Part shown: in pieces, positions 2,127 to 62,431 of the stretch | Layout: every line of letters begins with the position of its first letter | How positions within the stretch are numbered: position 1 is the stretch's first letter | Assembly: GCA_963749345.1 (NCBI GenBank) | Contig: CAVVMO010000001.1 | Coordinates: forward strand, 1,011,336-1,075,335 | Reading direction: 5' to 3' | Length of the DNA stretch: 64,000 nucleotides | From: an uncultured Bacteroidales bacterium | GTDB taxonomy: Bacteria > Bacteroidota > Bacteroidia > Bacteroidales > JAADJA01 | Notes under the pieces: model-generated | What the model saw: only the letters and a program-made list of their open reading frames with translations | What the model was told of the DNA's origin: nothing | The model's database searches: none | Program-made: the position numbers and the translations under genes

Positions 2127-5100
2127 TTATTCAATATTCCATTCCGGTAACCTTCCGGGTGTCCAGGGTGCTCCAATGCTTTCAAGCTCTTTTTCAATCG
2201 CAGGAAGTTCATTTTCAAAAATATCTTTAAGTTCATTCAGAATCGGCGGGAACTCCTCTTTTAGAATTTCATAACCATCCTTCTGGGTTTGAGTAATTCC
2301 AGACGTAGAACTGTAATGAGTATAAATAATGGAATAAAGCCTGTCGTTGATGGAAGGTATGGCCGGCCAGTTCTCTTCCTGGCTTGCCTTTGCTTCCTGT
2401 CCGTTATATTTCCATAGGATGTTGTCCATTTGTGTCTCCACTTTTTCAATTTTCTTTATCAATTCTATTCCGGCTTCGGGTGTACGTTGTGCTGCTTGCT
2501 TATCGCTTCTGATTCTTTCCATTAGATCGTTGGCAAAATCTTCAGTTCCCCTGATCACGCGGCCGAGTTCTGAAAGCTTTTGCTGGAAAGCAACAAGTTC
2601 TGCCCTGTCTTCTGCAGGAAGCGTTGTATTGTTCAACGGTTTTGCAATAAAATCAACCGGGCCAGCCAGTTCTTTCAACTCACCCCTGAAAACCTGCGCC
2701 ATCGATATCGTATATTTACCGGGAAGAACAAACATTCCATCGCCACCCATACTCATCGGATCAAATTTTTCTTCAACCCTGACCGGTGATGCAGATGGAT
2801 ACCTGAAGTTCCAGGTCAACCGGCTGATGCCTTCGCTTATACTTTTAGTTAGTTTTCTGACAATTTCTCCCTTTTCATCTTTAATCGTAAAAACCAGGTA
2901 GGGTTCTATTTCATTTTCCTCGGCGCGCAACTCATCCATAGTCGGTGTAGGGATGGGCTTTTTATCTTTGGCCAGTTCCTTTTCCTTTTCGCGCCTCTCA
3001 TCCTTCAGGGTTTTTGGTGTTTCCTTCACATAATAGGTAAATGTAGCACCGTATGACGGATTCTCAGCAATATAAAGATTCGAACCACTGCCATAACCAC
3101 CTCTATATTTTTGAACATACATCAATGCATCTTTGATTGGAAAAATATAAGCGGTTGAATCAAGAAGTTCCTTGTTTAATTTTCGCAATGGTGAATAATC
3201 ATCAAGAATGTAAAATCCGCGTCCGAAAGTGGCTAGTACGAGATCACTCTCTCTTTCCTGTATCGCAATGTCTTTAACTGAAACTGCAGGAATTCCCGAT
3301 TTAAGCTGTGTCCAGATTTTACCACCGTCTATTGTAAAGAAACAACCAAACTCGGTTCCCACGAACAATAAATCAGGATTGATGAAATCCTGCTGGATGG
3401 TGTGAACTGTTCCTTTATCAGGAAGATTTCCTGCAATGGATGTCCATGATTTCCCTTTATCTGTGCTTTTCAGCAAATACGGTTTGAAATCATCTCTGAG
3501 AATATTATCAAAGGATGCAAAAACAATGTTTTCATCAAACTTTGAAGCAAGGATATCACTCACATAAGTATTGGCAGGAACACCCGGGAAGGATTCGCAT
3601 TTTCTCCAGCTTCCGCCGGCATCTTCAGTTACCTGGATCAATCCGTCATCAGTTCCGATAAAGAGCAGGTTTTCTTTCACTTTTGATTCATCAATGGAAA
3701 CAGCCATGCCATAAAGCGAGGTCGAAACATCTTTTGCAACAGCATCAATGCTCCAAAACTGATCCATCACTGGCCAGGTATTCCTGTCGATCTTTGCAGT
3801 AATGTCATCACTTATAACTTTCCATGATTGTCCCCGGTCATCGCTCCTGAATATCTTGTTGGCGCCCATGTATAGCCGTGTGGGCGAATGCGGGCTTAGC
3901 ATATAAGGTGTATTCCAGTTCCATTTGTAGCTCTCCTCCCCTTTCCTCGGTTGTGGTTTGATGTTGATTGCTTCCCCGCTCTTCTTATCGTAACGATAAA
4001 TGTTTCCATACTGGTAAGCAGAATAGACAATATCGGGATTTGTAGGCTCGATTGCCTGAAAGAATCCATCGCCACCTAAGGTAGTAACCCATTCGCAACT
4101 GGAAACACCATCAGTATTTATGTTTCGGGAAGGTCCTCCAAAGCTGCTGTTGTCCTGTGTTCCGCCATAAACCCAGTAAAAAGGTTCGGTATTGTCGACT
4201 GCAACCCTGTAAAACTGAGTTACCGGCAGGTTGGTTTTATGAATATAGGTTGCGCCCCTATCAAAAGTTTCATAAACACCACCATCACCCCCGATCATAA
4301 AATGACGGGTATCTGTTGGATCGATCCATAATGCATGGTCATCCACGTGCCGGTCATTATTCCCCATGCTCTGCCATGTTTTACCTCCGTCCTCTGTAAA
4401 AGCCGAAACGGTTTCAGTGGAATAGACTTTATTTGCATTCACTGGGTCGCAATATATTTCATTATAATATTGGCCGGCATCATGATGGTCGCTCATTTTT
4501 TCCCAGGATTCTCCCATATCTGTCGAACGATAGAACCCGCTATTGTCCATGGCTGCTTCAATGATGGCATAAACAATATTGGGATCAACCGGTGAAATAG
4601 CGATTCCCATTCCTCCTTTATCCACTCCCGGAATCCCTGATTCCAGTTTGCGCCAGTTTTTACCGCCGTCTTCTGATTTATAAACGGCTGTTTCGGGTCC
4701 TCCACCAATTTTGGTATGGACATGACTTCTTCTTTGCTCTGAAGTTGCAAACATAATATCCGGATTGCACGGATGAATAATTACATTGTTTACACCTGTA
4801 TGCTCCGAAATATTCAACACCTTTTCCCAGGTTTTTCCGCCATCTGCAGTTTTATAAAGTCCTCTTTCACCACCCGGACCCCAAACGGAGCCTTCAGCTG
4901 CGACAAAAACTATATCTGTATTCCGGGGATCAATGGCAATCATACCGATCTGGCGTGATTCTTTCAAACCCATGTTTTTCCATGATTTGCCGCCGTCAGT
5001 GGTTTTATAAACTCCATCACCATAGCCAAGTGCCCGTTGATGATTATTTTCACCGGTACCAGCCCAAACTACATTTGGATTTTTTGGATCCATCTCCAGA

Positions 5101-7147: not shown

Positions 7148-7360
7148 ATGCCCGATAGTATTTACAAAGTGATCGAACTGATCGGTTCCAGCGATAAAAG
7201 CTGGGAAGACGCCGCCAAAAAAGCCGTTGAAAAGGCCGCCGAAACACTTGAAGACCTTCGCATTGCTGAAGTCTCAGCCATGGACATGAAAATAGAGGAA
7301 GGAAAGGTAGTGGCTTACAGAACAAAGGTAAAATTATCTTTCAGGTTCAGAGAAAGGTAA
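7148..7360 (+). CDS. Dodecin family flavin-binding protein
   Basis: 70-aa ORF MPDSIYKVIELIGSSDKSWEDAAKKAVEKAAETLEDLRIAEV...GKVVAYRTKVKLSFRF, which matches the dodecin size and pattern. Confidence 0.85.
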   Translation: MPDSIYKVIELIGSSDKSWEDAAKKAVEKAAETLEDLRIAEVSAMDMKIEEGKVVAYRTKVKLSFRFRER

Positions 7361-49377: not shown

Positions 49378-52300
49378 TTAATCTTTAATACAACGAACAA
49401 CAAAACCATGTACTTTGGTTTCATAAGATCGTCCATATCCTCCACTTGATTTGTTAAGGTTTCGATAAATTGATTGTGTTTCCGAAAATTCAGTCGAAGT
49501 CCAGATATAGGTTGATAATTTTATCTCAGCAAAAACAGGACCAATAGGACTTACTTGACGACTTAAACCTGCACCAAGGAAAGATAAACCACTTGAGTTT
49601 GTTGCTCCAGTATTTGGCTCATCCCAATGTAAATATCCAGTTTCTTTAATCATCCCGCCTACATTACTTCCTGCCGGCCAACCCCAAGAATAACATTCTA
49701 AAGTCGGATCAAGAAAAGTCATTAAAGTGCAATATTCGTCATCAGTTGGCATATGCCAGCCTTCAGGACAAATTCCAACATTACTCTCACCTGTACTATA
49801 TTGCATTGCTTCATTCCATTGATATAATCCGCCATAAATCAAACAATTATTTTCATTATTTTCATAACAATACTTTTGGATTATACCATCATCTGATTGA
49901 TCAATTGGGAAATCAATCATGGTTCCGATATTCATGTTTTCAGCCATCCAGCATTGAGTTCCTATTTGGACAGTTGAATAAGATTGGCCATCACGAATGT
50001 CAATAATTCCTTCACCACAAGGTACAGATGGAATTGTAACTGTTATAATAATACCTTTCCCACTATTAGGTTTCCACTTAATAATTTTATCATCAATTTC
50101 TACCTGGCTGTTCATATTATAGTCTCCATTATAGTAACCTGTTAAACCCAATTGGGTAAGCCATACATCATTTTTATCCAGGTTATTTATCAGTCCGTCG
50201 GAATTTCCATCAGCAGCGATCATACCCCAAACATTTGGAGTTAGCTGACTTTGCGAATGAGAACCGCCAAGACCAGTGTTTGAAGAAACTGTAAAATCAT
50301 AATTATAAATACCGGCTGATCCTGTAATAGGAAAAGAAGATATAATCGGCAAATGATTCCGATGAATGACCCTCAGATAAAAATTTTCCGGCGGTAATTC
50401 AGGAAAATCTAGAGGAGAGGTTCCGTCAATATCCCTTACGACTCCATCATTAAATACAAATGCAGCTTTTCGGCTTATTGCAACATAATTTGTATCATTG
50501 CCTGAGATTAATTTTTGAAGTATTTCAATAAGCACCCAGTCGATAATATTAACGGATGGGATATTTATTACAGATTCATTTCCCAGGTATTGCCATGGCG
50601 CTGAATTATATGGCTGATCTAACGGTAAATATCCTAATGCATTTAAGAAGTTTGACATTTGACCGCTGAAATATGGCCCCTCAAGAAAAACTTTAATATT
50701 TATTGCTTTTGAAAGGGTGGTAAATGTATACGGACCTACCCATGCACTATTGCCATAGTTATTACTACAATTAGCTCTAACATAAAAATCATATTCAGTG
50801 TTTGCTAATAAGTTATTATAGTTGTATGGATTAGATGAAATATTGGATGCTGTTGGCACACCTGTTGGTATGAAACCAGCAGTGTCCAATTCAATTTCCC
50901 ATGTTGCAGCACTTCCGTTCTCTATCCAACCTAAGTTTGCAGAATAATGAGTTATGTTGGTAACAAACAAGTTAGAAGGTTCGGGACAAATACCTTCATC
51001 AACTGAAATGTTGTCAATAAATAGGTCAGAGCCAAAACCGGATATTCCATTACACTTTATTAAAATATTATCCCCAAAAGAAGAAAGATCAATAATTCCT
51101 GAAGAAATAAAGCTACCAGGTATCTGGTATGCTGCACCATCATTTGAATTAAAGTCCGGACCTCCAAGCGACCAAACTTTCGACCAACTAAAAGCATTGT
51201 CATCTGAAACAAAAACTTCTAAAGAATCATTCAATAACGTAGGATAGGGTATGTGAGACCAGAAAAATTCAAGTGAAGGAGTTTCTAGAGCTGATATATC
51301 AATAGTGTTTGTTATCATTAAACAATTATTGTTTTGATTGACAGACCAGAAGTTTGCTAATGCACTTCCTTGGGTAGAGGAAGGGGCATAATGCATCCAA
51401 CAAAAGGACCCTCCACTGAGGTCGAAACATAGTGGTGGCCAGGTAGAAAATGTTTCATAAAATGGTGCTATGAAAGAAGGGCCTTTGGTTGAAAATGACT
51501 TTGGTCCCGACCAAAAACTGGTTTCCTCCTCAGTGCAGACGGACCTAACATAAAAATCATAATTTGTACATGAAGTCAAATTTTCATAATTATATGAATT
51601 TGATTGCACACCGGTAACTGTTGGGATTCCTGTAGGAATAAAACCTATAGGTCCAAATTCTATATCCCATGATGTAGCTGAACCGGTTTCTAACCATTGA
51701 AGAGTTGCTGTTGTTTCCATCACATCAATGGCATCAAGTTCAATTGGAGCAGAACATGAATAAAAAGAAATATTGTCTAAAAGAAGATAAACTTGATTTG
51801 GTTCGCTGTAACCGTGAAAACCGATAAAATATACACCGCTGGTAGTGGGTGTAATTGTGCCAGTTCCATCATGCCATACATTGCTATATTGAATTGCTGC
51901 ATCATTGAAAATGGGACCATTAGTCATTGCTACTGAATTCGCTTCTAATCCCCACTTTACTTCTAATTTCTCAAAATAAATTGAAGAATTGTTTGTATAT
52001 TTAAAATTCAAAGTATATGTTGTTCCAGATGAAAGCCAGAATCCTGGGGTAAAGAACCAGTCATCCATTGCCAGGGAGGAATTATATCTCACATACAAAA
52101 CATTCGGTAAAGAAGGGGGATTTAATGCATTTGCATATGTTTGCCAGTAATAGGGATCTATATTGGTATTTTCATAGGTTGTGCAATTCGGTAACGCAGG
52201 TGCTGTTACCGAATCGAAATTCTGGAAATAGGGAAGCGAGACTATCTGACATATCGTAATGAAAGTCCATACAGGTCCATTTGTTGTAAGAGTACCATTG

Positions 52301-53595
52301 TGCTCAATAACCTGCCATTGATATGTGCTACCATAATCTGCTGTATATGTGTAGGAGCCAGTAGAACCAGCAATACCACCAGTAACAACCTGAACCATGC
52401 TTCCAGGATGCCCGAATTTAAGATCATAGGTTACAGTATTTGCTCCAAATGACCATGTTAAATTACCACTAATTTCAATATTTGCTGCTCCATCCGCTGG
52501 ACTGGGATTGAATGGATCAAAGGGAGTTCCCCCAACAGGTGGTATATAAGTAAAGATCAATCCACTGCTAGGATATACCGTGTTTGACATTATGCATGAT
52601 GCTGTATTGGAAGTACCTGCGGTCGTGGATGACCAGTTTGTAGTTGTAGTTCTATTATTATAATCATTATTATTTGCTCCTCTAATTCCAACCTGACCGG
52701 TTGTTAAAGCTGAATACCCAACATGATTACCATAGACAATTTCAGCTTTATTGGATGTTTCGTAAAGTTTGATTTGGAAATTATATAGTTCTCCATAATA
52801 AGTAGACCCATATCTTTTGAAATTTTTGAACTGAATTACATGAATCCGATTTGGGGAAGAACCCAAAGTTTGCGTTCTGATTTCAGCAGTATAAGCAATA
52901 CAGGTTTGCAAAGTACCTGTCGCTGTGGCATTGGCAGATAAAGTGATTGTCTGTGCTCCCGCGTTAAATGAAACAATGGTGGCGCCTGCTGGTATATTTG
53001 CAGAGGTAACTTGTTTCCCTACAACAATACCACCAAAATGAGATACAGACGACAGAACAGGGCTTCCCAAAGTTGTGGTTGCCTGGAAAACAAAACGGCC
53101 ATCATTATCCCGACTAAAAGCAGCGATTGCACCAGCATAATCTGTGGTCGCTGATATTGCCGTATAATTGTTATTAAGTGGAAGAGTTGTGCCAAATGTT
53201 ATATAACCATTAGAATTTATATTAAAATTAGTGTACGGCAAATCATTAAAAGTAAATGTAAATGGTATCGTTTGCATAGAATAATTAACATCATCCAAGT
53301 AATTAGTTCCACTGCCAGGAATTGAACTAGCAACCACAGTTCCTCCTGTAATTAGAGTATAAGTACCCAATGATTGACTAAATGTGTAGCTGGTGGCAGC
53401 ATCAGAGGGATAATCTATTTTAATGATTAAACCAGTTGTATTCTCAATAGAATTCAGTGTTGAATTTTCTATTATTTTATCATTGCCTGAATTTTGATAA
53501 TCTTTATATACGTCATTTTGAGCTTGAATTGTAATAATTGATAAAATGACCATTACCAAAAACGAAACAAGTGATAGCTTTAAAAGTTTTTTCAT
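49378..53595 (-). CDS. Giant secreted multidomain surface protein: two adhesin-like modules each followed by an FN3-like domain, a dockerin-like module and a C-terminal FISUMP (Fibrobacter succinogenes major paralogous, TIGR02145-like) domain
   Basis: 1405-aa ORF with a signal peptide. Two ~90-aa FN3-like repeats are present: CSAPIELDAIDVMETTATLQWLETGSATSWDIEFGPIGFIPTG...YDFYVRSVC at nt ~51487-51756, and CPEPSNLFVTNITHYSANLGWIENGSAATWEIELDTAGFIPTG...YDFYVRANC at nt ~50716-50988. The dockerin-type loops are DGNSDGLINNLD and DYNMNSQVEIDD. The C-terminus (DGQSYSTVQIGTQCWMAENMNIG...YGGLYQWNEAM...CPEGWHMPTDDEY...ATNSSGLSFLGAG...IWTSTE...HGFVVRCIKD) matches the FISUMP pattern. Confidence 0.8.
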   Translation of the reverse strand: MKKLLKLSLVSFLVMVILSIITIQAQNDVYKDYQNSGNDKIIENSTLNSIENTTGLIIKIDYPSDAATSYTFSQSLGTYTLITGGTVVASSIPGSGTNYLDDVNYSMQTIPFTFTFNDLPYTNFNINSNGYITFGTTLPLNNNYTAISATTDYAGAIAAFSRDNDGRFVFQATTTLGSPVLSSVSHFGGIVVGKQVTSANIPAGATIVSFNAGAQTITLSANATATGTLQTCIAYTAEIRTQTLGSSPNRIHVIQFKNFKRYGSTYYGELYNFQIKLYETSNKAEIVYGNHVGYSALTTGQVGIRGANNNDYNNRTTTTNWSSTTAGTSNTASCIMSNTVYPSSGLIFTYIPPVGGTPFDPFNPSPADGAANIEISGNLTWSFGANTVTYDLKFGHPGSMVQVVTGGIAGSTGSYTYTADYGSTYQWQVIEHNGTLTTNGPVWTFITICQIVSLPYFQNFDSVTAPALPNCTTYENTNIDPYYWQTYANALNPPSLPNVLYVRYNSSLAMDDWFFTPGFWLSSGTTYTLNFKYTNNSSIYFEKLEVKWGLEANSVAMTNGPIFNDAAIQYSNVWHDGTGTITPTTSGVYFIGFHGYSEPNQVYLLLDNISFYSCSAPIELDAIDVMETTATLQWLETGSATSWDIEFGPIGFIPTGIPTVTGVQSNSYNYENLTSCTNYDFYVRSVCTEEETSFWSGPKSFSTKGPSFIAPFYETFSTWPPLCFDLSGGSFCWMHYAPSSTQGSALANFWSVNQNNNCLMITNTIDISALETPSLEFFWSHIPYPTLLNDSLEVFVSDDNAFSWSKVWSLGGPDFNSNDGAAYQIPGSFISSGIIDLSSFGDNILIKCNGISGFGSDLFIDNISVDEGICPEPSNLFVTNITHYSANLGWIENGSAATWEIELDTAGFIPTGVPTASNISSNPYNYNNLLANTEYDFYVRANCSNNYGNSAWVGPYTFTTLSKAINIKVFLEGPYFSGQMSNFLNALGYLPLDQPYNSAPWQYLGNESVINIPSVNIIDWVLIEILQKLISGNDTNYVAISRKAAFVFNDGVVRDIDGTSPLDFPELPPENFYLRVIHRNHLPIISSFPITGSAGIYNYDFTVSSNTGLGGSHSQSQLTPNVWGMIAADGNSDGLINNLDKNDVWLTQLGLTGYYNGDYNMNSQVEIDDKIIKWKPNSGKGIIITVTIPSVPCGEGIIDIRDGQSYSTVQIGTQCWMAENMNIGTMIDFPIDQSDDGIIQKYCYENNENNCLIYGGLYQWNEAMQYSTGESNVGICPEGWHMPTDDEYCTLMTFLDPTLECYSWGWPAGSNVGGMIKETGYLHWDEPNTGATNSSGLSFLGAGLSRQVSPIGPVFAEIKLSTYIWTSTEFSETQSIYRNLNKSSGGYGRSYETKVHGFVVRCIKD

Positions 53596-53650: not shown

Positions 53651-53683
53651 CATCCTACCCACTTTTGTAAGTAGGGTAGGATA
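53651..53683 (-). terminator. Strong hairpin between the small ORF and the giant gene (weak U-tract; possible terminator)
   Basis: ATCCTACCCACT (53652-53663) pairs with AGTAGGGTAGGAT (53670-53682), giving 12 bp with one bulged A. On the minus strand it is followed by GAATTTTAAG. Confidence 0.4.
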
Positions 53684-53735: not shown

Positions 53736-53981
53736 TTAAATGCTTATTTCACCTCCACCATAAATCCCCTTCAAGCTTGCATCCGGATTGTAAACCATGA
53801 GGAATGTATTACCGGCAGCGCCAAGCTGGGCAGGGGTAAATTCATCTTCTTTGCCGGGCTGAAGTTCGGGGGCGGTTTCAGGTACAGGATTATCTGCCTT
53901 GGCAGCAGTGTAGAAGCGCAACGGGGCATCACCAGTGTTTTCGACGGTAAATACTGAGGCTGCAGTAAACCCGTCTTTCAT
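53736..53981 (-). CDS. Small acidic orphan protein (81 aa from the ATG at 53981), GC-rich; possibly the 3' remnant of a larger gene
   Basis: Sequence MKDGFTAASVFTVENTGDAPLRFYTAAKADNPVPETAPELQPGKEDEFTPAQLGAAGNTFLMVYNPDASLKGIYGGGEISI. By hand count, 122 of 246 nt are G+C (about 50%), against visibly AT-richer flanks. The supplied ORF extends to 54233 through AT-rich sequence. Confidence 0.4.
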   Translation of the reverse strand: MKDGFTAASVFTVENTGDAPLRFYTAAKADNPVPETAPELQPGKEDEFTPAQLGAAGNTFLMVYNPDASLKGIYGGGEISI

Positions 53982-54269
53982 GATGATCACCTTTGCGGCA
54001 GAATTTACGGAACCGGAGAATGCAAGGACACATTGAGGGTTTTTTATAGTATTGCAGATATTAAAATTATGGGTTATCAATGTTTTAAATTTGATGCAAG
54101 TAAAATTATAATCGAAAAATTGCTTAAAAACAATATGATCAAACTGGTGTAGGAAGGGCATGAATTTTTTGAGGAAATGATGTGTTTGGATTAGGAAACT
54201 ATTGATTATTTTTAAACCCGGTAAATAAATCATGATTCTGAATCCATTTATTTAAATAAAAATCATTCG

Positions 54270-56369
54270 GTGACGGAAGGAAAACATAATTCGGGAAGTT
54301 GGCCTATACTTATCAATCCTTATATATTGGCATTGGTGGCTTCCTTAATAATTATTTTGCTTCTGCCAATGGACTTCCCTAAATATAAAATTGAAATAAT
54401 TGATAACCAGGTGCATCAAAGTAATAATTTCAGGATTTTTGATGATCTGGATAATAATGGTTATAGCGATGAAATAAACCTTGCGAACAACTTTATCGGC
54501 TCAACCGGATTATCCGTCAGATTTAATCCACACAACATAATAGAACAATGGAATTTTCAGGGAAGCAATATTTTTGTTTCTAAGGAAAACTTAATTATTG
54601 GTGACTTTGATAACAATTTGATTAAAGAAATATATGGTTTTACAATTTCAAACGACAGTATTTTTCTAAACTGGGTACCAAATATTACAGGTAAGGAAGT
54701 CAAACAGAGATTCATCACTAAGGTGCGTATAAAAAAAGGTAAATGCGACCCGGTTAATATTCCTCTTGAAATGGACGACCTGGATGGAGATGGTTACAAG
54801 GAATTGCTTTTTGGCATCAATACCGGATTTTCAGTTCAGCCTAGAAATGTTTTTGCATATAACATTGTAAGCGACTCATTGAAACAAAGCCCCAAAAGTG
54901 CAGCTGCATTCATAGATATATTTCAGTACGATGTTACCGGTGATGGCTTGAATGAAATATTACTTTATACTTATTCTCCTGAAAATCTGCACGACACAGG
55001 ATATCAATACCACGACAGCAGCGCCTGGATGATGGTTCTTGACAGAAAACTGGAATATTTATTTCCCCCAATTGAGATCAAAGGACGCTGGGGAACAGTC
55101 ATGCCGATAATTTTCAGAAATACAGGTTTACAGCTGATCTTCGGAGCAATGCATTATTGGCGCGACACTAATCATATTGGAATGAAAATGATGCTGCTTG
55201 ACACAATAGGCAACATTATAAAAGAACAGGTTTGTGACCCAGTGCCACCCAATGCAACAATTAAATTTTTCCAAACCTTTAGCAAAAGAGGAGATTACGC
55301 AGTAATTTCAACCGGAAATGAAATTCGTATTTATGATCAGTTCCTTGATCTTGATAGGGAAATTCCCTTAAACCAAAGGATATCTTGTCAGCATCAAATG
55401 GATCTGGATTTGGATGGCAGCAATGAAATACTATTGTATGCTACCGATAATAAATTGAGAATTTTCAGAGAAAATATGAAGCATCCTGCGATAATAGATA
55501 TAAGTAATATGGCCGATGAATATAACACTGCATTTTCATTAGTTAAAGTACCCGGCTTGCTGCCATTAATTTCGATTTTTTCTAATAATAAATGGTATTT
55601 GATTTCGTATGCCCTTAATCATATGTTTTATTGGCGGTGGGCAATCTATGCTGCCATATATTTAAGTGTTTTAGTATTTACTTTATTCGTACAGAAAATC
55701 CAGCGTATTCAACTCCAGAGCAAGTACAATACCGAAAAGAAAATTACTGAGTTGCAGCTAAAGATTATAAAAAACCAGCTCGACCCGCATTTCGTACTCA
55801 ATGCCATTAATTCAATCACCAGTTCGGTTTCCAACCAAAAAAAGGAAGAAGCTACTGAACATTTGCAGCAATTCTCTCAAATGTACCGGTCGCTGGTTTT
55901 GTCATCGGACAAGATCACACGCACATTGACTGAGGAGATTGCTTTTACTGAAAACTACCTGAAAATGGAGCAGTTCAGGTTTAGCATGAAGTTTCAATAT
56001 TCCATTGTTATTGATCCGGCCATTGATACAACAATTGAAGTCCCCAAGATGATCGTTCAGTCGTACACTGAGAATGCCATTAAGCATGGATTGGCAGGCA
56101 GAAAGGAAGGAGGAGGCATACTTGAAATAATGGCTAAGCAATTTGACCAAAAGTTAATCCTTACCATCAAAGACAATGGAGGTGGAAGAAAAGAATCTGC
56201 ACAGGCAGGATCTACTTCAACCGGCAAAGGCGTTGAAATGATGAACAACCTCTACGATCTGTACTATAAAATAACCAACAGAAAAATTACGGGTGAAATA
56301 GTGGATTTATATGACGATGAAGAGAAATCAGCGGGAACAAGCGTTATCGTAACAATTCCAATTAATTAA
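54270..56369 (+). CDS. Sensor histidine kinase, LytS/His_kinase (PF06580-like) type, with an extracytoplasmic FG-GAP/VCBS-like beta-propeller sensor domain
   Basis: 699-aa ORF with a GTG start and a first TM segment. The ~400-aa external region carries Ca-binding-type loops (DDLDNNGYSDEINL, GDFDNNLIKEIY, DDLDGDGYKELLF, DVTGDGLNEILLY, DLDLDGSNEILLY). A second TM segment (WAIYAAIYLSVLVFTLFV) follows, then the H-box (LKIIKNQLDPHFVLNAINSI) and the ATPase domain (ENAIKHG, DNGGG, STGKGVEMMN). Confidence 0.8.
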   Translation: MTEGKHNSGSWPILINPYILALVASLIIILLLPMDFPKYKIEIIDNQVHQSNNFRIFDDLDNNGYSDEINLANNFIGSTGLSVRFNPHNIIEQWNFQGSNIFVSKENLIIGDFDNNLIKEIYGFTISNDSIFLNWVPNITGKEVKQRFITKVRIKKGKCDPVNIPLEMDDLDGDGYKELLFGINTGFSVQPRNVFAYNIVSDSLKQSPKSAAAFIDIFQYDVTGDGLNEILLYTYSPENLHDTGYQYHDSSAWMMVLDRKLEYLFPPIEIKGRWGTVMPIIFRNTGLQLIFGAMHYWRDTNHIGMKMMLLDTIGNIIKEQVCDPVPPNATIKFFQTFSKRGDYAVISTGNEIRIYDQFLDLDREIPLNQRISCQHQMDLDLDGSNEILLYATDNKLRIFRENMKHPAIIDISNMADEYNTAFSLVKVPGLLPLISIFSNNKWYLISYALNHMFYWRWAIYAAIYLSVLVFTLFVQKIQRIQLQSKYNTEKKITELQLKIIKNQLDPHFVLNAINSITSSVSNQKKEEATEHLQQFSQMYRSLVLSSDKITRTLTEEIAFTENYLKMEQFRFSMKFQYSIVIDPAIDTTIEVPKMIVQSYTENAIKHGLAGRKEGGGILEIMAKQFDQKLILTIKDNGGGRKESAQAGSTSTGKGVEMMNNLYDLYYKITNRKITGEIVDLYDDEEKSAGTSVIVTIPIN

Positions 56370-56377
56370 ACTGAAAT

Positions 56378-57127
56378 ATGCAAAACCGGCAACTAAGGAC
56401 AATTATAGTAGATGATGAGGAAAAGGCAATAAATAATCTGGAAACCCTATTGAATAATTTCCCGCAGGTTCAGATCATAGATAAATCAACAGATCCTGAA
56501 AAGGCATTGGGTAAAATACTGCTCCAAAAACCCGATTTACTATTTATGGATATTCAAATGCCGGATAAAACAGGGTTTGAAATCGTATCAGAAGTTTATC
56601 GGAGTGGATTAAGACCCGACATTATATTTGTAACAGCTTTTGATAAGTATGCCATCACTGCCATTCGTTATGCTGCATTCGATTACCTGCTGAAACCAGT
56701 TAACAAGGAAGAACTTAAAGATGCGTTGGAACGGTTACTGAAAAAAACAACTGAAACAGATAAGGAGGAACAGATTAAAATACTTATCGAGAAAACGAGT
56801 AGACATAAAATCAAATTCTCAAATGCAGGCGGATTCATTCTTATTAAACCCGAGGATATTATTTACATCGAGGCCGACTGGAATTATTCCGAAATTTATT
56901 TCAGCAAGGAAATAAAGGAAGTCGTTACAATGAATATCGGAAGTGTTGAAGAACTATTACCAAAAGAAGATTTTTACAGGATCAATCGTTCAATAATCAT
57001 TAATATTAACTACCTTTCGAGGGTAATTCGTAAAAAGCTTTTGGCCATACTTATTAAAGATGGCCAGGAATACCAGTTCAAAATACCAATATTAAAAATC
57101 CGGGGACTGGAAAGGTTTTTAGCTTAA
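56378..57127 (+). CDS. LytTR-family (LytR/AlgR) response regulator
   Basis: 249-aa ORF. The receiver domain reads IIVDDEEKAI...DLLFMDIQMPDKTGFE...FVTAFDKYA, and the LytTR domain reads IIYIEADWNYSEIYF...FYRINRSIIININYL. It starts 8 nt after the kinase stop codon. Confidence 0.9.
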   Translation: MQNRQLRTIIVDDEEKAINNLETLLNNFPQVQIIDKSTDPEKALGKILLQKPDLLFMDIQMPDKTGFEIVSEVYRSGLRPDIIFVTAFDKYAITAIRYAAFDYLLKPVNKEELKDALERLLKKTTETDKEEQIKILIEKTSRHKIKFSNAGGFILIKPEDIIYIEADWNYSEIYFSKEIKEVVTMNIGSVEELLPKEDFYRINRSIIININYLSRVIRKKLLAILIKDGQEYQFKIPILKIRGLERFLA

Positions 57128-57358: not shown

Positions 57359-57362
57359 GTTA

Positions 57363-57435
57363 GCAGGGAGGAGGGGCTCGAACCCTCATCAGTCTAGTTA
57401 GTTCTAGAATATCTATCCAGTTGACTACTTCCTGC
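57363..57435 (-). tRNA. tRNA-like sequence, non-canonical (probable tRNA pseudogene or relic, or an atypical tRNA-derived RNA)
   Basis: Minus-strand sequence: GCAGGAAGTAGTCAACTGGATAGATATTCTAGAACTAACTAGACTGATGAGGGTTCGAGCCCCTCCTCCCTGC. The T arm is perfect (GAGGG-TTCGAGC-CCCTC), and U8/A9/A14/GG-like positions are present if G1 is treated as a -1 base. The acceptor helix is 8 bp with one A-C mismatch and the D stem has only 3 bp. The only good anticodon stem (TCTAG/CTAGA) encloses a 6-nt loop, AACTAA, which contains CTA. No CCA is encoded. Confidence 0.45.
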
Positions 57436-57440
57436 TTGTT

Positions 57441-57465
57441 AGGACTGCAGCAACAGTCCTTTTTT
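57441..57465 (+). terminator. Hairpin plus T-run (plus-strand terminator-like), 5 nt from the 5' end of the tRNA-like gene
   Basis: AGGACTG-cagcaa-CAGTCCT followed by TTTTT. Confidence 0.5.
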
Positions 57466-58129: not shown

Positions 58130-58930
58130 ATGAAAAAGAACTACAGAATTTGGATTTACTCATTAACATTAGTGGGTTTTATATTAGTTCTTGCAATTGG
58201 TTGTAAGAAAGATGAATCGCCATCAAAGAAAACTCCATTAATCACCTGGGCAAATCCTGAAGATATTGTTTATGGTACCTTGCTAAGCGCGACCCAGCTA
58301 AACGCCACAGCTGATGTAGAAGGTACCTTTTCTTACACTCCCCAGATTGGCACATTACTGGATGCAGGCGCTAATCAGGTTTTGAAAGTGTCCTTTACGC
58401 CAGCCGATGCCGAAGCCAACGATACCGCAAGCAAAACAGTGAAAATTAATGTACTTTATATAGGCGATAGCTATAGAGGTGGTAAAGTAGCCTATATTTT
58501 ACAAGCAGGAGACCCAGGCTATGCAGCTGCAGAAGCACACGGTTTAATAGCCGCACCAGGCGACCAAAGTACAGGCATACAATGGTATAATGGAAGCTAT
58601 ACAACAACAGGAGCAACTGCAACAGCATTAGGCACGGGGAATGACAACACAGCCACTATTGTTGCCAGTCAGGGAGCAGGCAGCTATGCAGCGAAATTGT
58701 GTTCTGATTTGGTATTAGGTGGCTATTCCGACTGGTTTTTACCCAGTAAAGATGAGTTAAATAAGCTCTACATAAACAGAGCAGCGATTGGTGGTTTTGC
58801 TAATGAAAACTATTGGAGTTCCAGCGAGGCCGGCACCAACGCCGCATGGAAGCAGAGCTTCACCACTGGCATGCAGGGTGGCCTCTATAAAAACAACGAC
58901 TACTATGTGCGCTCGGTTCGGGCTTTTTAA
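58130..58930 (+). CDS. Lipoprotein with an Ig-like N-terminal region and a C-terminal DUF1566 (Lcl C-terminal-like) domain
   Basis: 266-aa ORF with lipobox LAIGC. The C-terminus (GGYSDWFLPSKDELNKLY...NYWSSSE...AWKQSF...YYVRSVRAF) fits the DUF1566 pattern. Confidence 0.75.
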   Translation: MKKNYRIWIYSLTLVGFILVLAIGCKKDESPSKKTPLITWANPEDIVYGTLLSATQLNATADVEGTFSYTPQIGTLLDAGANQVLKVSFTPADAEANDTASKTVKINVLYIGDSYRGGKVAYILQAGDPGYAAAEAHGLIAAPGDQSTGIQWYNGSYTTTGATATALGTGNDNTATIVASQGAGSYAAKLCSDLVLGGYSDWFLPSKDELNKLYINRAAIGGFANENYWSSSEAGTNAAWKQSFTTGMQGGLYKNNDYYVRSVRAF

Positions 58931-59245: not shown

Positions 59246-59344
59246 CTTGTCTGATTATTATTTCCATTCCTCTGCTGATTTTAGATTATTGTGTTTGTCC
59301 ATGACTGAAATAGGTTGACCAAAAATAAGATAAAAAGTCAACTT

Positions 59345-59767
59345 ATGGAAACAAAGCAAAAAGGGAAAAAGGGGTTAAGGCTCCGACGTCATTTCAGTGT
59401 AGGGATAAAGAAACAAGTAGTAAGGGATATTGAAAAAGGAAAGTGTACTGTATTGGAAGCCAGTCGTGAGTTGGGAGTAAGTTTTCAAACTGTGTACCTC
59501 TGGCTTTATAAGTATAGTTTATATTTGCAAAAAAACAAGATACTTATAGTGGAAGATAAAAGCGAAGCCTATCGCAGCAAAGACCTTGAGAAACGGATAT
59601 TAGAATTGGAAGCTGTTTTGGGGCGCAAGCAAATGGAAATTGATTTGCTCAACAAAGTAATTGAACTGGCCAACGGAGAATACAAGACAGATTTAAAAAA
59701 AAGCATGTTAAAGAAGCCCTTGGATGGTTCCGGCTCAATAAAGGGATCAAGCACTTCTACAAGATGA
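59345..59767 (+). CDS. IS3 transposase OrfA (HTH plus leucine-zipper region)
   Basis: METKQKGKKGLRLRRHFSVGIKKQVVRDIEKGKCTVLEASRELGVSFQTVYLWLYKY..., followed by a coiled-coil region. The ATG at 59345 is preferred over the TTG at 59315, which lies inside IRL. Confidence 0.8.
   Translation: METKQKGKKGLRLRRHFSVGIKKQVVRDIEKGKCTVLEASRELGVSFQTVYLWLYKYSLYLQKNKILIVEDKSEAYRSKDLEKRILELEAVLGRKQMEIDLLNKVIELANGEYKTDLKKSMLKKPLDGSGSIKGSSTSTR
59695..59701 (+). promoter_or_regulatory. Programmed -1 ribosomal frameshift heptamer A_AAA_AAA in orfA
   Basis: The orfA frame reads TTA AAA AAA AGC. The -1 frame is open from here (KKHVKEALGWFRLNKGIKHFYK) into the orfB ATG at 59764, which would give an OrfAB fusion. 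Confidence 0.6.
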
Positions 59768-60696
59768 AAGAGTTATATTCGATAGCCAACATAAGTAAGC
59801 AGGCACTGTGGAAGCATGACAGGCGGCAGGAAACAGTCACAGCAATCACAGGGCAGATGGTAGATATAATGGAAGACATCAGACAACGACATAAACGTAT
59901 GGGATGCAGGCGGATGTACTATGCGACTCAGGGAACTTTACCTGTAGGCAGGGATCTGTTCGAGAAAATCGGTTTTGCCAATGGTTTCAAGTTGCGGCGT
60001 AAACCAAATACAATAAAAACCACCTGGGGTCAAAGAGTAGAGGTTCATCCCAACCTGATCGAAGGCAAAATACTCACTGACATCAACCAGGTGTGGCAAA
60101 GCGACATTTTCTACATCAAGATAGAAGGAAAAGACTATTACGGAGTAAGCATAGAAGATGTATACTCAAGAAAAATGCTATCCATGCACATTTCAAAAAG
60201 CCTGCAGGCAGAACAAGTTGAGAACGCCTTAAAAAAGGCAATCAAAGTAAGAAAGAACATGGATTTAACCGGCTGTATCTTTCATTCGGACCGTGGCAGC
60301 CAATACATCAGTACCCGGATAAAAAAACTCTTGCGCGACACACAAATGCAAATCAGTATGTGCAAAATACCGCAGGAGAATGCCTATGTCGAACGTGTGC
60401 AGGGAACCCTCAAGTACGAATACTTGTATGAATTTGATTTAACCGAAAAGAATTTGCCTAACACGATTCGTAAAATACTGGAATATTATAACAAGGAGCG
60501 CCCTCATAGTAACTTAAAGATGAATAATCCTGAAAGATTTGAATTAGAAGTTGAAAAGCTTGTTGAAAAACAACGTCCAAAACTCCAGATATACAAATGG
60601 ACTCATGGGGTATCAACAAAAGAAGATGATATTAACAAAAAAGAAAAAAGTAGCAAAAAAGAAAAAATGAATACAATAAAAACAAATAGTATTTAA
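59764..60696 (+). CDS. IS3 transposase OrfB (rve/DDE integrase core)
   Basis: 310-aa ORF containing WQSDIFYI (D), FHSDRGSQYIS (D) and ENAYVERVQGTLKYE (E). Its ATG overlaps the orfA stop (ATGA). Confidence 0.9.
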   Translation: MKELYSIANISKQALWKHDRRQETVTAITGQMVDIMEDIRQRHKRMGCRRMYYATQGTLPVGRDLFEKIGFANGFKLRRKPNTIKTTWGQRVEVHPNLIEGKILTDINQVWQSDIFYIKIEGKDYYGVSIEDVYSRKMLSMHISKSLQAEQVENALKKAIKVRKNMDLTGCIFHSDRGSQYISTRIKKLLRDTQMQISMCKIPQENAYVERVQGTLKYEYLYEFDLTEKNLPNTIRKILEYYNKERPHSNLKMNNPERFELEVEKLVEKQRPKLQIYKWTHGVSTKEDDINKKEKSSKKEKMNTIKTNSI

Positions 60697-60805
60697 TTGA
60701 AAAAAGTCAACCTATTTCAGGCAAGTACAGTTAATCAGATTTCATATATCCTATTTCGGATTTCAAAATTTATTTTACTTTTGCCACGTATTCAGGTCGA
60801 AAAAT

Positions 60806-62431
60806 ATGCGTCGTTTACTTACATTGCTTGCAGTGTTATTGTGTTTTGTTGGTTTTACCCAAACCGATACGGCAACTGTCATGTATTACAATGTTCTTAA
60901 CTATCCAGGTAGCACCGGGTCGCGGGTTCAGTATTTCAGAAAAATTAATCAATACATCAAACCCGATTTCGTTTTGATTACCGAATTGGTTTCTAACGCC
61001 GGAGCAGTCACCCTTCTGCAGGATGGCTTAAACGTTTTTGGCGAAACAAAGTATCAAAAAGCAACTTTCATTGATGGCCCCGATACCGACAACATGCTTT
61101 TCTACAATAGTGATAAGTTTACCCTCTATTCACAGGATACCATCGGAACCTTGCCCCGCAGGATGAATGAATATGTTCTCTATTACAACTTACAGCAACC
61201 GGCAGAAGATACTGTATTTTTCTATTTCTATGTGGCCCATCTGAAAGCCAGTACTGGGTTTGAATCTGAGCGCCTGGAAGAAGTCATGAAGTTTAAAAAT
61301 TATGTCAACAGCAAACTCAACATTGAAAACATGATTTTCGGTGGCGACCTGAACTTTTACAATGCTTCATCTGAGCCGGCTTACTGGGCCCTTATCAACG
61401 ATGGATTATACCCCCTCAATGATGTTTTGCCCGCAGGCGACTGGCACGAAGATCCTGCTTATGCATCTATTCATACCCAAAGTCCCAGGACAGCATCATT
61501 TGGCGGTGGGGCAAATGGCGGAATGGATGACCGTTTTGATTTTATGTTATTCACGGATGACATTCTTTCAGGATCAAACAATTTAAGTTACATTAATAAT
61601 TCCATTACTGCATTTGGTAACGATGGCCAGCATTTTAATGTGGCGCTTACTGATTCCCCGGTAAATACTTCACTTCCCGATTCCATAATTCAGGCTCTGT
61701 ACTATATGTCCGACCACCTGCCCGTTTTCAGCAAATTTATTATCCAGCCTGATGTTGTTTTTCAGAATTACGAACTTTCCTTAAAGGTATTTCTGGAAGG
61801 CCCTTTCAATGGTTCAGAAATGAGTACCGGCATAAATCCTGTTTTGCCACTAAGCGATCCCTATGTTGGAGCGCCCTGGTACGCAACCGACAGTGAACCT
61901 GTTGTCAGCATTCCAAACTCTGATATTGTCGATTGGGTTTTAGCTGAACTAAGGGATGCTCCCGATGCTGTATCTGCCGGTTCTGGAACAATCATCAGCC
62001 GGCAAACAGGATTTTTATTAAGGGATGGTACAATAAAAGGATTGGATGGCATGTCAAATCTACAATTCAACAATTCAATAATTCATCAATTATTTCTTGT
62101 CATCTGGCACCGAAATCACCTCGGAGTGATGAGCGCTTTCCCTCTCAGTTTGACAGGTAATTTCTTTAATTACGACTTTACAACCGGCACAGACAAAGCC
62201 TACCTCAACGGACAGAAACAGCTGGCTCCCGGAATTTGGGGGATGATTGCCGGCGATTGCGATGCCAACAGTGTGGTGAATGAAAATGACAAATCCTTAA
62301 TCTGGAAAAATCAAGGGGGGAATGCAGGTTATCTGCCTGGCGATCTTAATTTCAACGGGCAGGCTAACAATCCGGATAAAAACGAATTTATAATTATCAA
62401 CTTTCTGAATCACTCCAAAATTCCTCAGTAG
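60806..62431 (+). CDS. Secreted endonuclease/exonuclease/phosphatase (EEP) fold protein with a C-terminal dockerin-like module shared with the 1405-aa protein
   Basis: 541-aa ORF with a signal peptide. EEP-type blocks are VMYYNVLNYPG, FVLITEL, YVAHLKAS, IFGGDLNF, GGMDDRFDFML and MSDHLPVF. The C-terminal ~215 aa (nt ~61772-62428) begin KVFLEGPF and contain DCDANSVVNEND and DLNFNGQANNPD. Confidence 0.75.
   Translation: MRRLLTLLAVLLCFVGFTQTDTATVMYYNVLNYPGSTGSRVQYFRKINQYIKPDFVLITELVSNAGAVTLLQDGLNVFGETKYQKATFIDGPDTDNMLFYNSDKFTLYSQDTIGTLPRRMNEYVLYYNLQQPAEDTVFFYFYVAHLKASTGFESERLEEVMKFKNYVNSKLNIENMIFGGDLNFYNASSEPAYWALINDGLYPLNDVLPAGDWHEDPAYASIHTQSPRTASFGGGANGGMDDRFDFMLFTDDILSGSNNLSYINNSITAFGNDGQHFNVALTDSPVNTSLPDSIIQALYYMSDHLPVFSKFIIQPDVVFQNYELSLKVFLEGPFNGSEMSTGINPVLPLSDPYVGAPWYATDSEPVVSIPNSDIVDWVLAELRDAPDAVSAGSGTIISRQTGFLLRDGTIKGLDGMSNLQFNNSIIHQLFLVIWHRNHLGVMSAFPLSLTGNFFNYDFTTGTDKAYLNGQKQLAPGIWGMIAGDCDANSVVNENDKSLIWKNQGGNAGYLPGDLNFNGQANNPDKNEFIIINFLNHSKIPQ

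Follow-up and report, generated by a model that had tools for sequence, protein, structure and literature searches.

Systems with LytTR-type regulators have been characterized mainly in Firmicutes and Proteobacteria. A locus of an uncultured Bacteroidales bacterium, in which genes for a sensor histidine kinase and a LytTR regulator lie among genes for large secreted proteins, raises the question of what such a pair perceives through a large external domain and which genes it serves. The locus is part of a stretch of 64,000 nucleotides (nt; GCA_963749345.1, contig CAVVMO010000001.1, 1,011,336-1,075,335 of the forward strand), which is referred to as the window; coordinates given without a locus name are positions within it. 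The window proteins are unnamed in the source databases, and literature text searches yielded nothing on the propeller-kinase architecture or its targets in Bacteroidota. An initial reading made from the letters of the DNA (the sequence-only reading) had put forward, as one hypothesis, a self-contained module that would sense a surface or polymer and then deploy adhesins and an enzyme. Having inspected about 20 distinct genomic contexts of kinase relatives (L-numbered loci such as L001, L002, L004, L091, L092, and L173), we arrive at a different answer, which we regard as reasonably probable: the pair is an autoregulated two-component system that was ancestrally coupled to a divergent operon for a 325-amino-acid (aa) protein and a surface protein, and this coupling has partly decayed in the window.

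Architecture of the kinase and its regulator

The kinase gene (54270-56369, plus strand) encodes 699 aa and was delimited using its open reading frame (ORF), Pfam matches, an AlphaFold2 model, and an alignment of homologues. The GTG was accepted as its start because it aligns with the ATG start of the closest homologue and because the N-terminal residues and the first membrane helix are conserved. Between the membrane helices TM1 (residues 12-33, nt 54303-54368) and TM2 (residues ~455-478, nt 55632-55703) lies the predicted FG-GAP-type propeller (residues 39-449, nt 54384-55616), which is presumably periplasmic. TM2 is followed by the PF06580 H-box/dimerization domain with the predicted phospho-acceptor His507 (residues 496-574, nt 55755-55991) and by a HATPase_c domain (residues 594-698, nt 56049-56363). 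In Pfam searches, the PF06580 match is clear (4e-18, 65.8 bits against a cut-off of 25.2), and HATPase_c stays below its cut-off in the window kinase (21.2 against 26.4 bits) while being present in 62 of 66 relatives. H507, embedded in NQLDPHF, is invariant in 41 homologues, and together with N511, E601, N602, D635, N636, G637, and G639 it belongs to a set of residues that are invariant or nearly so in 41 to 66 homologues. In Foldseek searches of the PDB with the AlphaFold2 model, the best solved structure for the cytoplasmic part was the GanS kinase domain (6swk), and the ATPase-domain fold also matched the kinase domains of HK853 and ZraS.

The H-box had been described as LytS-type. This holds for the kinase core only: the multi-pass 5TM-Lyt sensor domain has no Pfam match in the kinase, and the model shows just two membrane helices flanking a beta domain, so the protein is not LytS proper. 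Pfam likewise detected no Reg_prop, Y_Y_Y, HisKA, fused receiver, or AraC output in the pair, and Reg_prop kinases surfaced in the homologue search merely as distant matches via the kinase core. The pair is thus outside the hybrid two-component system (HTCS) family.

The regulator gene (56378-57127, plus strand, 249 aa) starts exactly 8 nt past the kinase stop codon, as had been stated from the sequence. Its product comprises a REC domain (residues 9-117, nt 56402-56728; Response_reg, 1e-21) and a LytTR DNA-binding domain (residues 153-231, nt 56834-57070; LytTR, 2e-13), both above the Pfam cut-off; the named models closest to it, BtsR and LytR, fall short of their cut-offs. Regulator identity to the window is 81.5% in L004 and 82.3% in L173. 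A regulator lies directly 3' of the kinase in most family contexts, and the exceptions include three with intervening mobile DNA: in L092 the regulator is cut short by an IS4 transposase, in L091 its place is taken by a Y1 transposase, and in L173 a 23S_rRNA_IVP gene separates kinase and regulator. Such mobile or selfish DNA was located at L092 8767-10587, L091 9429-9992, L173 4434-4820, and L093 6070-6180 and 10731-11021, L093 holding an integrase-like fragment and an HNH gene. Furthermore, two paralogous FG-GAP kinases in tandem precede a single LytTR regulator in L001 (7786-12091) and L090 (585-4903), which suggests several inputs to one output.

A predicted propeller as the input domain

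The AlphaFold2 model, built on 41 homologues, has a mean pLDDT (predicted local distance difference test) of 84.9 and shows a helix at residues 17-31, an all-beta region at 39-449, and a long helix at 451-521 that connects the second membrane span to the kinase core without a break. The best Foldseek matches of the external domain in the PDB were beta-propellers (KICSTOR chain B, the BBS9 N-terminus, the LRRK2 WD40 domain, and the LGI1 EPTP domain; E 4e-10 to 1e-7), with TM-scores of only about 0.5 and sequence identities of 10-13%. The external domain of about 410 aa is thus confidently modeled as an FG-GAP-type beta-propeller, in line with the fold that had been proposed from the sequence. 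In the window kinase itself FG-GAP_3 remains below the Pfam cut-off (17.2 against 26.9 bits); among 66 sampled homologues, FG-GAP_3 was found in 58 (best 2e-13) and FG-GAP in 24 (best 4e-8).

The sequence-only reading had also noted at least five calcium-type loops in an external domain of about 400 aa. Five D-x-D/N-x-D-G-x-x-E loops are indeed present (residues 59-68, 112-120, 170-178, 221-229, and 378-386), are conserved across 41 homologues, and constitute the most conserved feature of the sensor; they may bind Ca2+. The seven blades that had been expected are probably wrong. The model contains 32 strands in eight groups of four, the loops are spaced 51-58 residues apart, and the 411-residue domain fits 8 x 51, so strand counting provisionally points to a propeller that is probably eight-bladed rather than seven-bladed, although its best structural matches, at a TM-score of only about 0.5, are seven-bladed.

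Between the window and L004, protein identity is 36.9% in the sensor, 74.2% in TM2 plus kinase, and 81.5% in the regulator. The sensor thus evolves much faster than the rest, which fits an input domain with diversifying specificity.

The family to which this kinase belongs is large, stable in architecture, and uncharacterized. A word-indexed search returned about 42 full-length relatives (25-52% identity, all about 700 aa). When the sensor domain by itself was compared exhaustively with 1.84 billion cluster representatives using phmmer, 818 of them matched at E<=1e-10 and 1157 at E<=1e-3. Among the 150 best sensor matches, almost all are 680-720 aa long and carry the sensor at residues ~30-460. 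The named genomes with relatives are metagenome-assembled genomes of Bacteroidales, Lentimicrobiaceae, and Labilibaculum. In an alignment of the sensor by itself, no stretch showed sufficient conservation to seed a genome scan; a whole-protein genome scan found mostly unrelated PF06580 kinases, with full-length relatives at 11 of 80 loci. A metagenome scan with the regulator as query added one more informative context, L093/L094, which has 38% kinase identity and neither a surface gene nor an AGGAA pair. PF06580 is present in 61 of the 66 sampled homologues; a SpoIIE phosphatase domain replaces it in two, and HisKA_3 and HisKA occur in one each. Now and then, the propeller has thus been joined to a different output.

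A candidate operator upstream of the kinase gene

A block of 187 bp upstream of the kinase gene (54034-54220) was recognized as conserved non-coding DNA by nucleotide comparison with L004 and L173, and we consider it a candidate promoter/operator. Its identity to L004 (3896-4083) is 78%, compared with 76% for the regulator gene, 72% for the kinase core, and 57% for the sensor-coding DNA, and its presence in L173 makes the conservation three-way. The block contains three direct AGGAA repeats with an exact spacing of 21 bp (54151-54197, plus strand; starts at 54151, 54172, and 54193), which are the proposed sites of the LytTR regulator. This triple pattern occurs once in the 64 kb and in none of 100 shuffles, and in 4.9 Mb of strand sequence, AGGAA pairs have a background rate of 0.011 per kb per strand. 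The triple is also found in L004, L173, L174, and L175, whereas metagenome contigs searched for the exact pattern of the operator core yielded no match. All 15 repeat columns are invariant, whereas 5 of 16 columns are kept in the second spacer and 13 of 16 in the first. Furthermore, two copies (AGGAA-N16-AGGAA) occur at -70/-49 in L092, and the corresponding position is occupied by imperfect copies in L091 and L002.

Thirteen nt past the third repeat and about 57 nt before the GTG lies a putative Bacteroidota -7 promoter box, TATTTTTA (54206-54213, plus strand). The Bacteroidota -7 promoter consensus is TAnnTTTG. A TAyTTTTA box occupies the same position in the window, L004, L173, L002, and L091, with a near-match (TATTTTAG) in L092, and may serve as the promoter. 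The 21-bp period of the repeats matches the geometry of LytTR sites, because published sites consist of repeats of 9-11 nt that are 11-13 nt apart (PMC4847170); the operators of LytS/LytR-, BtsS/BtsR-, and YpdA/YpdB-type systems are likewise direct repeats about two helical turns apart (PMC4847170).

Two other identities of the block were considered and rejected. As an RNA, it has no Rfam match at E<=1, a weak consensus fold (-10 kcal/mol over 236 nt), and no tRNA; as a small ORF, it has a stop codon in the relevant frame in L004 and no conserved ORF. The conservation of repeats and box, the 21-bp period, and the lack of an RNA signal in these searches lead us to read the block as the candidate promoter/operator of the kinase operon, where its own regulator may bind.

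The region between this block and the neighboring genes differs among the relatives. In L004 (3646-3855) and L173 (7591-7807), the stretch from the kinase promoter block to the 325-aa gene includes five to six 42-bp tandem repeats that each contain the palindrome TTCCAACTTTGGAA. Gene-calling programs report these arrays as spurious ORFs of 139-156 aa, and the window lacks the arrays. Phasing of the 42-bp repeats with the AGGAA sites was considered and rejected, the offsets of 173 and 341 bp (counted by hand) not being multiples of 21. In addition, an insert of about 170 bp with long inverted repeats (CACAGATTCACAGATT ... AATCTGTGAA) lies between promoter block and kinase start in L004 (~4090-4274) and L173 (~7180-7345, minus strand) and not in the window. 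It could be an element resembling a miniature inverted-repeat transposable element, or a structured leader.

Divergent surface-protein genes and the 325-aa gene

The giant protein ending in FISUMP that had been noted upstream of the pair was confirmed. It is a secreted modular protein of 1405 aa (49378-53595, minus strand) with a signal peptide, two fn3 domains, a module of about 200 aa without a name (residues 965-1170), and a C-terminal FISUMP domain (Fib_succ_major/FISUMP, 7e-28; TIGR02145, 2e-38). A gene for a secreted protein lies divergently upstream in all seven contexts in which the kinase is at least 40% identical, the window included, and these proteins are mostly giant and mosaic. 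Six of the seven encode large multidomain proteins with FISUMP, Laminin_G_3, BACON, PKD_6, CARDB, or a type IX secretion system C-terminal domain (T9SS-CTD). Besides the FISUMP protein of the window, the divergent genes encode a 325-aa protein followed by a PKD+FISUMP lipoprotein in L004; a 325-aa protein followed by a CARDB/Flg_new_2/T9SS-CTD protein in L173; an fn3/Laminin_G_3 lipoprotein in L002; a T9SS-CTD protein and a collagen-repeat protein in L001; a Laminin_G_3/FISUMP/BACON protein of at least 2278 aa in L091; and a 2146-aa PKD_6 protein in L092. For another close relative, P0006, which is not among the seven contexts, the upstream gene encodes a 337-aa protein of no known kind.

The domains of these proteins are exchanged beside the kinase. 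The lipoproteins of L002 (5361-7808, minus strand) and L004 (345-2438, minus strand) are orthologous, with a common N-terminal half of 430 aa (45% identity, E 4e-113), and their C-termini differ, carrying Laminin_G_3 in L002 and PKD+FISUMP in L004. In L002, L091, and L092, the shared intergenic region is only about 190 bp long, and the conserved repeats lie within about 100 bp of the divergent gene. The surface-gene neighborhood that the sequence-only reading had assumed is therefore conserved on the upstream, divergent side and within the closer subclade; the downstream flank differs in all seven close contexts, and among about 12 more distant ones the divergent pattern recurs in L015 and perhaps L008 only. 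That position and orientation are kept despite domain swapping, with the opposite flank not conserved, argues for functional coupling in the subclade and against leftover synteny. The comparison thus suggests that, within this clade, the pair controls divergent surface-protein genes on the upstream side.

The ORF at 53736-54233, which had been called an orphan, is not a gene in its own right. Its real coding part is the GC-richer 3' portion (53736 to ~54035, minus strand), a 5'-truncated remnant of the conserved 325-aa gene that encodes only the C-terminal beta-sandwich domain of about 90 aa (75% identity to residues 234-320 of the L004 protein). The 5' portion of the ORF extends the frame artificially through the conserved non-coding block. 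The 325-aa gene lies between the FISUMP lipoprotein gene and the kinase gene in L004 and adjoins the kinase in L004 and L173-L175, and in the window as a remnant. Relative to L004 and L173, a segment of about 1.1 kb has been deleted from the window, comprising the 5' two-thirds of this gene and the adjoining 42-bp tandem repeat array.

The 325-aa family is strongly conserved, many members being 70-83% identical. A model of a full-length relative shows a helical bundle of about 225 aa and a beta domain of about 90 aa. Neither Pfam nor NCBIfam profiles match the protein, and a fold comparison with the PDB gave nothing at E<=1e-3; weak partial fold matches were to phage tail proteins and small beta-sandwich proteins only.

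Proposed mechanism and alternative explanations

In the mechanism that we propose, the kinase would span the inner membrane twice and present its Ca2+-loop propeller of the FG-GAP/VCBS type, probably eight-bladed, as a periplasmic input. The continuous helix would relay the signal through TM2 to the PF06580 dimerization/His domain and the ATPase domain, His507 would be phosphorylated, and the phosphate would pass to the REC domain of the co-transcribed LytTR regulator. The phosphorylated regulator would most likely bind the three AGGAA repeats, which lie immediately ahead of its own operon's promoter and overlap it, and the system would thereby be autoregulated. In the ancestral arrangement, which L004 and L173 retain, this intergenic region would also serve the divergent operon, which encodes the highly conserved 325-aa protein, predicted to be cytoplasmic, and then a large surface protein with exchangeable lectin-like domains; from this shared region it would follow that the pair is probably a dedicated controller of the cassette. 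The 1.1-kb deletion in the window would then have removed most of the first target gene. The analysis shows the domain architecture, the fold class, the operon structure, the conservation of loops, block, and repeats, and the pattern of neighboring genes, whereas the periplasmic topology, Ca2+ binding, the ligand, the regulator-AGGAA interaction, and the regulation of the divergent genes are inferred.

Several observations weigh against this mechanism. The block is shared by the window, L004, and L173 through homology, so these three do not count as independent instances, and the support for the AGGAA repeats from L092, L091, and L002 is weaker or partial. The motif is absent altogether in more distant relatives. 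Members below 40% identity adjoin housekeeping genes (ETF, POR, malonyl-CoA decarboxylase, thioredoxin-like), several of them without an adjacent regulator, and because Bacteroidota commonly carry genes for large surface proteins, such neighbors should sometimes arise by chance. In the window, moreover, a terminator-like hairpin (53654-53675, minus strand; consensus match only) stands between remnant and FISUMP gene, and neither the FISUMP nor the Lcl_C gene has an AGGAA pair in front of it. Kinase, regulator, and candidate operator are intact here, whereas control of the FISUMP gene by the pair is uncertain.

Some of these points could be accommodated by a stand-alone two-component system with targets elsewhere, the surface genes being neighbors through a variable, mobile-element-rich island inherited in one subclade. 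The housekeeping neighborhoods of distant members, the absence of an operator-like repeat before the FISUMP and Lcl_C genes, and the recurrent mobile DNA at these loci (IS3 in the window, the IS4 and Y1 transposases, the 23S_rRNA_IVP gene, the integrase fragment with its HNH gene) speak for it, and we grant it a modest chance. An inherited island, however, does not readily explain why the upstream flank alone is conserved, why its gene holds position and divergent orientation despite swapped domains, or why the repeats lie so close to the divergent gene in L002, L091, and L092. A narrower doubt concerns the block, which might be a promoter with sites of another factor, or encode a small or leader RNA, with the AGGAA spacing incidental. 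Conservation reaches about 110 bp upstream of the repeats (54034-54150), beyond what three LytTR sites need, the first spacer is conserved too, and LytTR sites lack a universal consensus, so that they are not assignable from sequence alone (PMC4847170). We nonetheless hold this to be quite improbable: the Rfam, folding, and ORF results argue against an RNA or a coding function, three invariant pentamers in exact 21-bp phase just upstream of a -7-like box are the layout expected for this regulator class, and the AGGAA pair recurs in L092, where the block is otherwise different.

The input side admits alternatives as well. Instead of acting as a receptor for an external polymer or surface, the propeller might report periplasmic Ca2+ or the state of the envelope, or dock a partner such as the surface protein during export. 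The five acidic loops being the most conserved part of the sensor would suit this, as would the protein-protein interaction propellers among the best structural analogues (the ITFG2-like KICSTOR subunit, BBS9, LGI1) and the rapid diversification of both sensor and partner surface protein. In integrin alpha chains, however, D-x-D-x-D-G-type loops are structural Ca2+ sites and the ligand site lies elsewhere. We think it unlikely that the propeller reports Ca2+ or envelope state or docks a partner. A more far-reaching version of the coupling would make kinase, LytTR regulator, 325-aa protein, and domain-swapping giant surface protein a conserved four-gene cassette, in which the propeller monitors its cognate surface protein or the ligand captured by it, the two co-diversifying in a feedback circuit for variable adhesins. 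We regard this as speculative and rather doubtful. An autoregulated pair with an ancestral link to the divergent operon remains the explanation that we prefer.

The downstream flank

Downstream of the pair, the sequence-only reading had placed a DUF1566 lipoprotein and a dockerin-bearing EEP enzyme. The former is correct: a 266-aa lipoprotein (58130-58930, plus strand) matches Lcl_C, formerly DUF1566, at 3e-13 in Pfam, with 1 kb of unrelated sequence between the regulator and its gene. The latter, a secreted protein of 541 aa (60806-62431, plus strand), was not confirmed as a dockerin-bearing EEP protein: its N-terminal half is weakly EEP/MnuA-like with sub-threshold matches only (MnuA 6e-7, 29.7 bits against a cut-off of 185; Exo_endo_phos2 E=0.19), and a search for a dockerin profile gave no match. 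An insertion sequence of the IS3 family with 24-nt terminal inverted repeats (59296-60729, plus strand; orfA 59315-59767, orfB 59764-60696) lies between the two genes, 77 nt upstream of the 541-aa gene. Both genes adjoin the pair in the window only and in none of the other family contexts examined, and a search for shared direct-repeat sites in the kinase promoter region and the downstream intergenic region, which the sequence-only reading had suggested, found no motif beyond chance. A self-contained module including these two genes is therefore not borne out, and we treat them as mere neighbors.

The 541-aa protein (residues 324-525) and the FISUMP protein (965-1170) have the nameless module of about 200 aa in common (39% identity, E 1e-41); Pfam does not match this module, and two D/N-rich loops lie close to its end. 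Cluster mates of the Lcl_C lipoprotein and the 541-aa protein that are at least 90% identical were found on a second contig of 237,639 bp, where the mate of the latter is only 260 aa long; this points to a duplicated or shared segment elsewhere. Between regulator and lipoprotein gene lies a tRNA-like piece (57362-57436, minus strand). Its T-arm (GAGGGTTCGAGCCCCTC) is canonical, it has an acceptor-like stem, and a terminator-like hairpin comes after it; hairpins were located at 57358-57330 (minus strand) and 57441-57460 (plus strand). The piece received no ARAGORN call and no Rfam match at E<=1, and could be a degraded tRNA or an attachment-site remnant. The locus had no plasmid match.

Relation to known systems and significance

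In its mode of action, the system resembles two-component systems of the LytS/LytTR type, but its input is a periplasmic propeller. With LytS/LytR of Staphylococcus aureus and BtsS/BtsR and YpdA/YpdB of Escherichia coli, it has the kinase core (PF06580 H-box plus HATPase_c) and the REC-LytTR regulator in common. LytS, BtsS, and YpdA, however, perceive their signals through a multi-pass 5TM-Lyt sensor (plus GAF) and have no large periplasmic domain, whereas the window kinase has two membrane helices and the propeller of about 410 aa; their targets (lrgAB, the pyruvate transporter gene btsT, and yhjX) have no counterpart in the window locus. The match to GanS of Geobacillus stearothermophilus (6swk/6swj) covers the kinase core only, which is of the same structural class.

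Among the HTCSs of Bacteroides, the heparin sensor BT4663 reportedly carries periplasmic Reg_prop beta-propellers. These systems resemble the window pair in a periplasmic beta-propeller input and in the control, here only presumed, of adjacent surface or glycan-handling genes. They differ in their Reg_prop/Y_Y_Y twin propellers, HisKA kinase, fused receiver plus AraC, and association with polysaccharide utilization loci, and the window pair has none of those domains. The propellers of integrin alpha, ITFG2, and BBS9, in turn, resemble the sensor in their FG-GAP-type repeats and D-x-D-x-D-G-like hairpin loops and are the best fold matches, but they are seven-bladed eukaryotic protein-interaction modules, whereas the window propeller probably has eight blades, five of them with loops ending in a Glu ligand.

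For the window alone the result is modest, the signalling pair being intact and the presumed target cassette partly deleted. Most useful is that it yields a concrete candidate operator together with a candidate cassette of target genes. A previously anonymous family of histidine kinases, with at least 818 representative clusters, thereby becomes a testable unit with a defined input domain, a candidate operator (three AGGAA repeats at 21-bp intervals), and a candidate regulon (the divergent 325-aa protein and variable lectin-domain protein). If the link between the pair and its divergent neighbors is true, it would provide a natural set of sensor variants for studying how the specificity of a propeller input changes, and it would reveal a way in which large, variable surface proteins are turned on in uncultured Bacteroidales.

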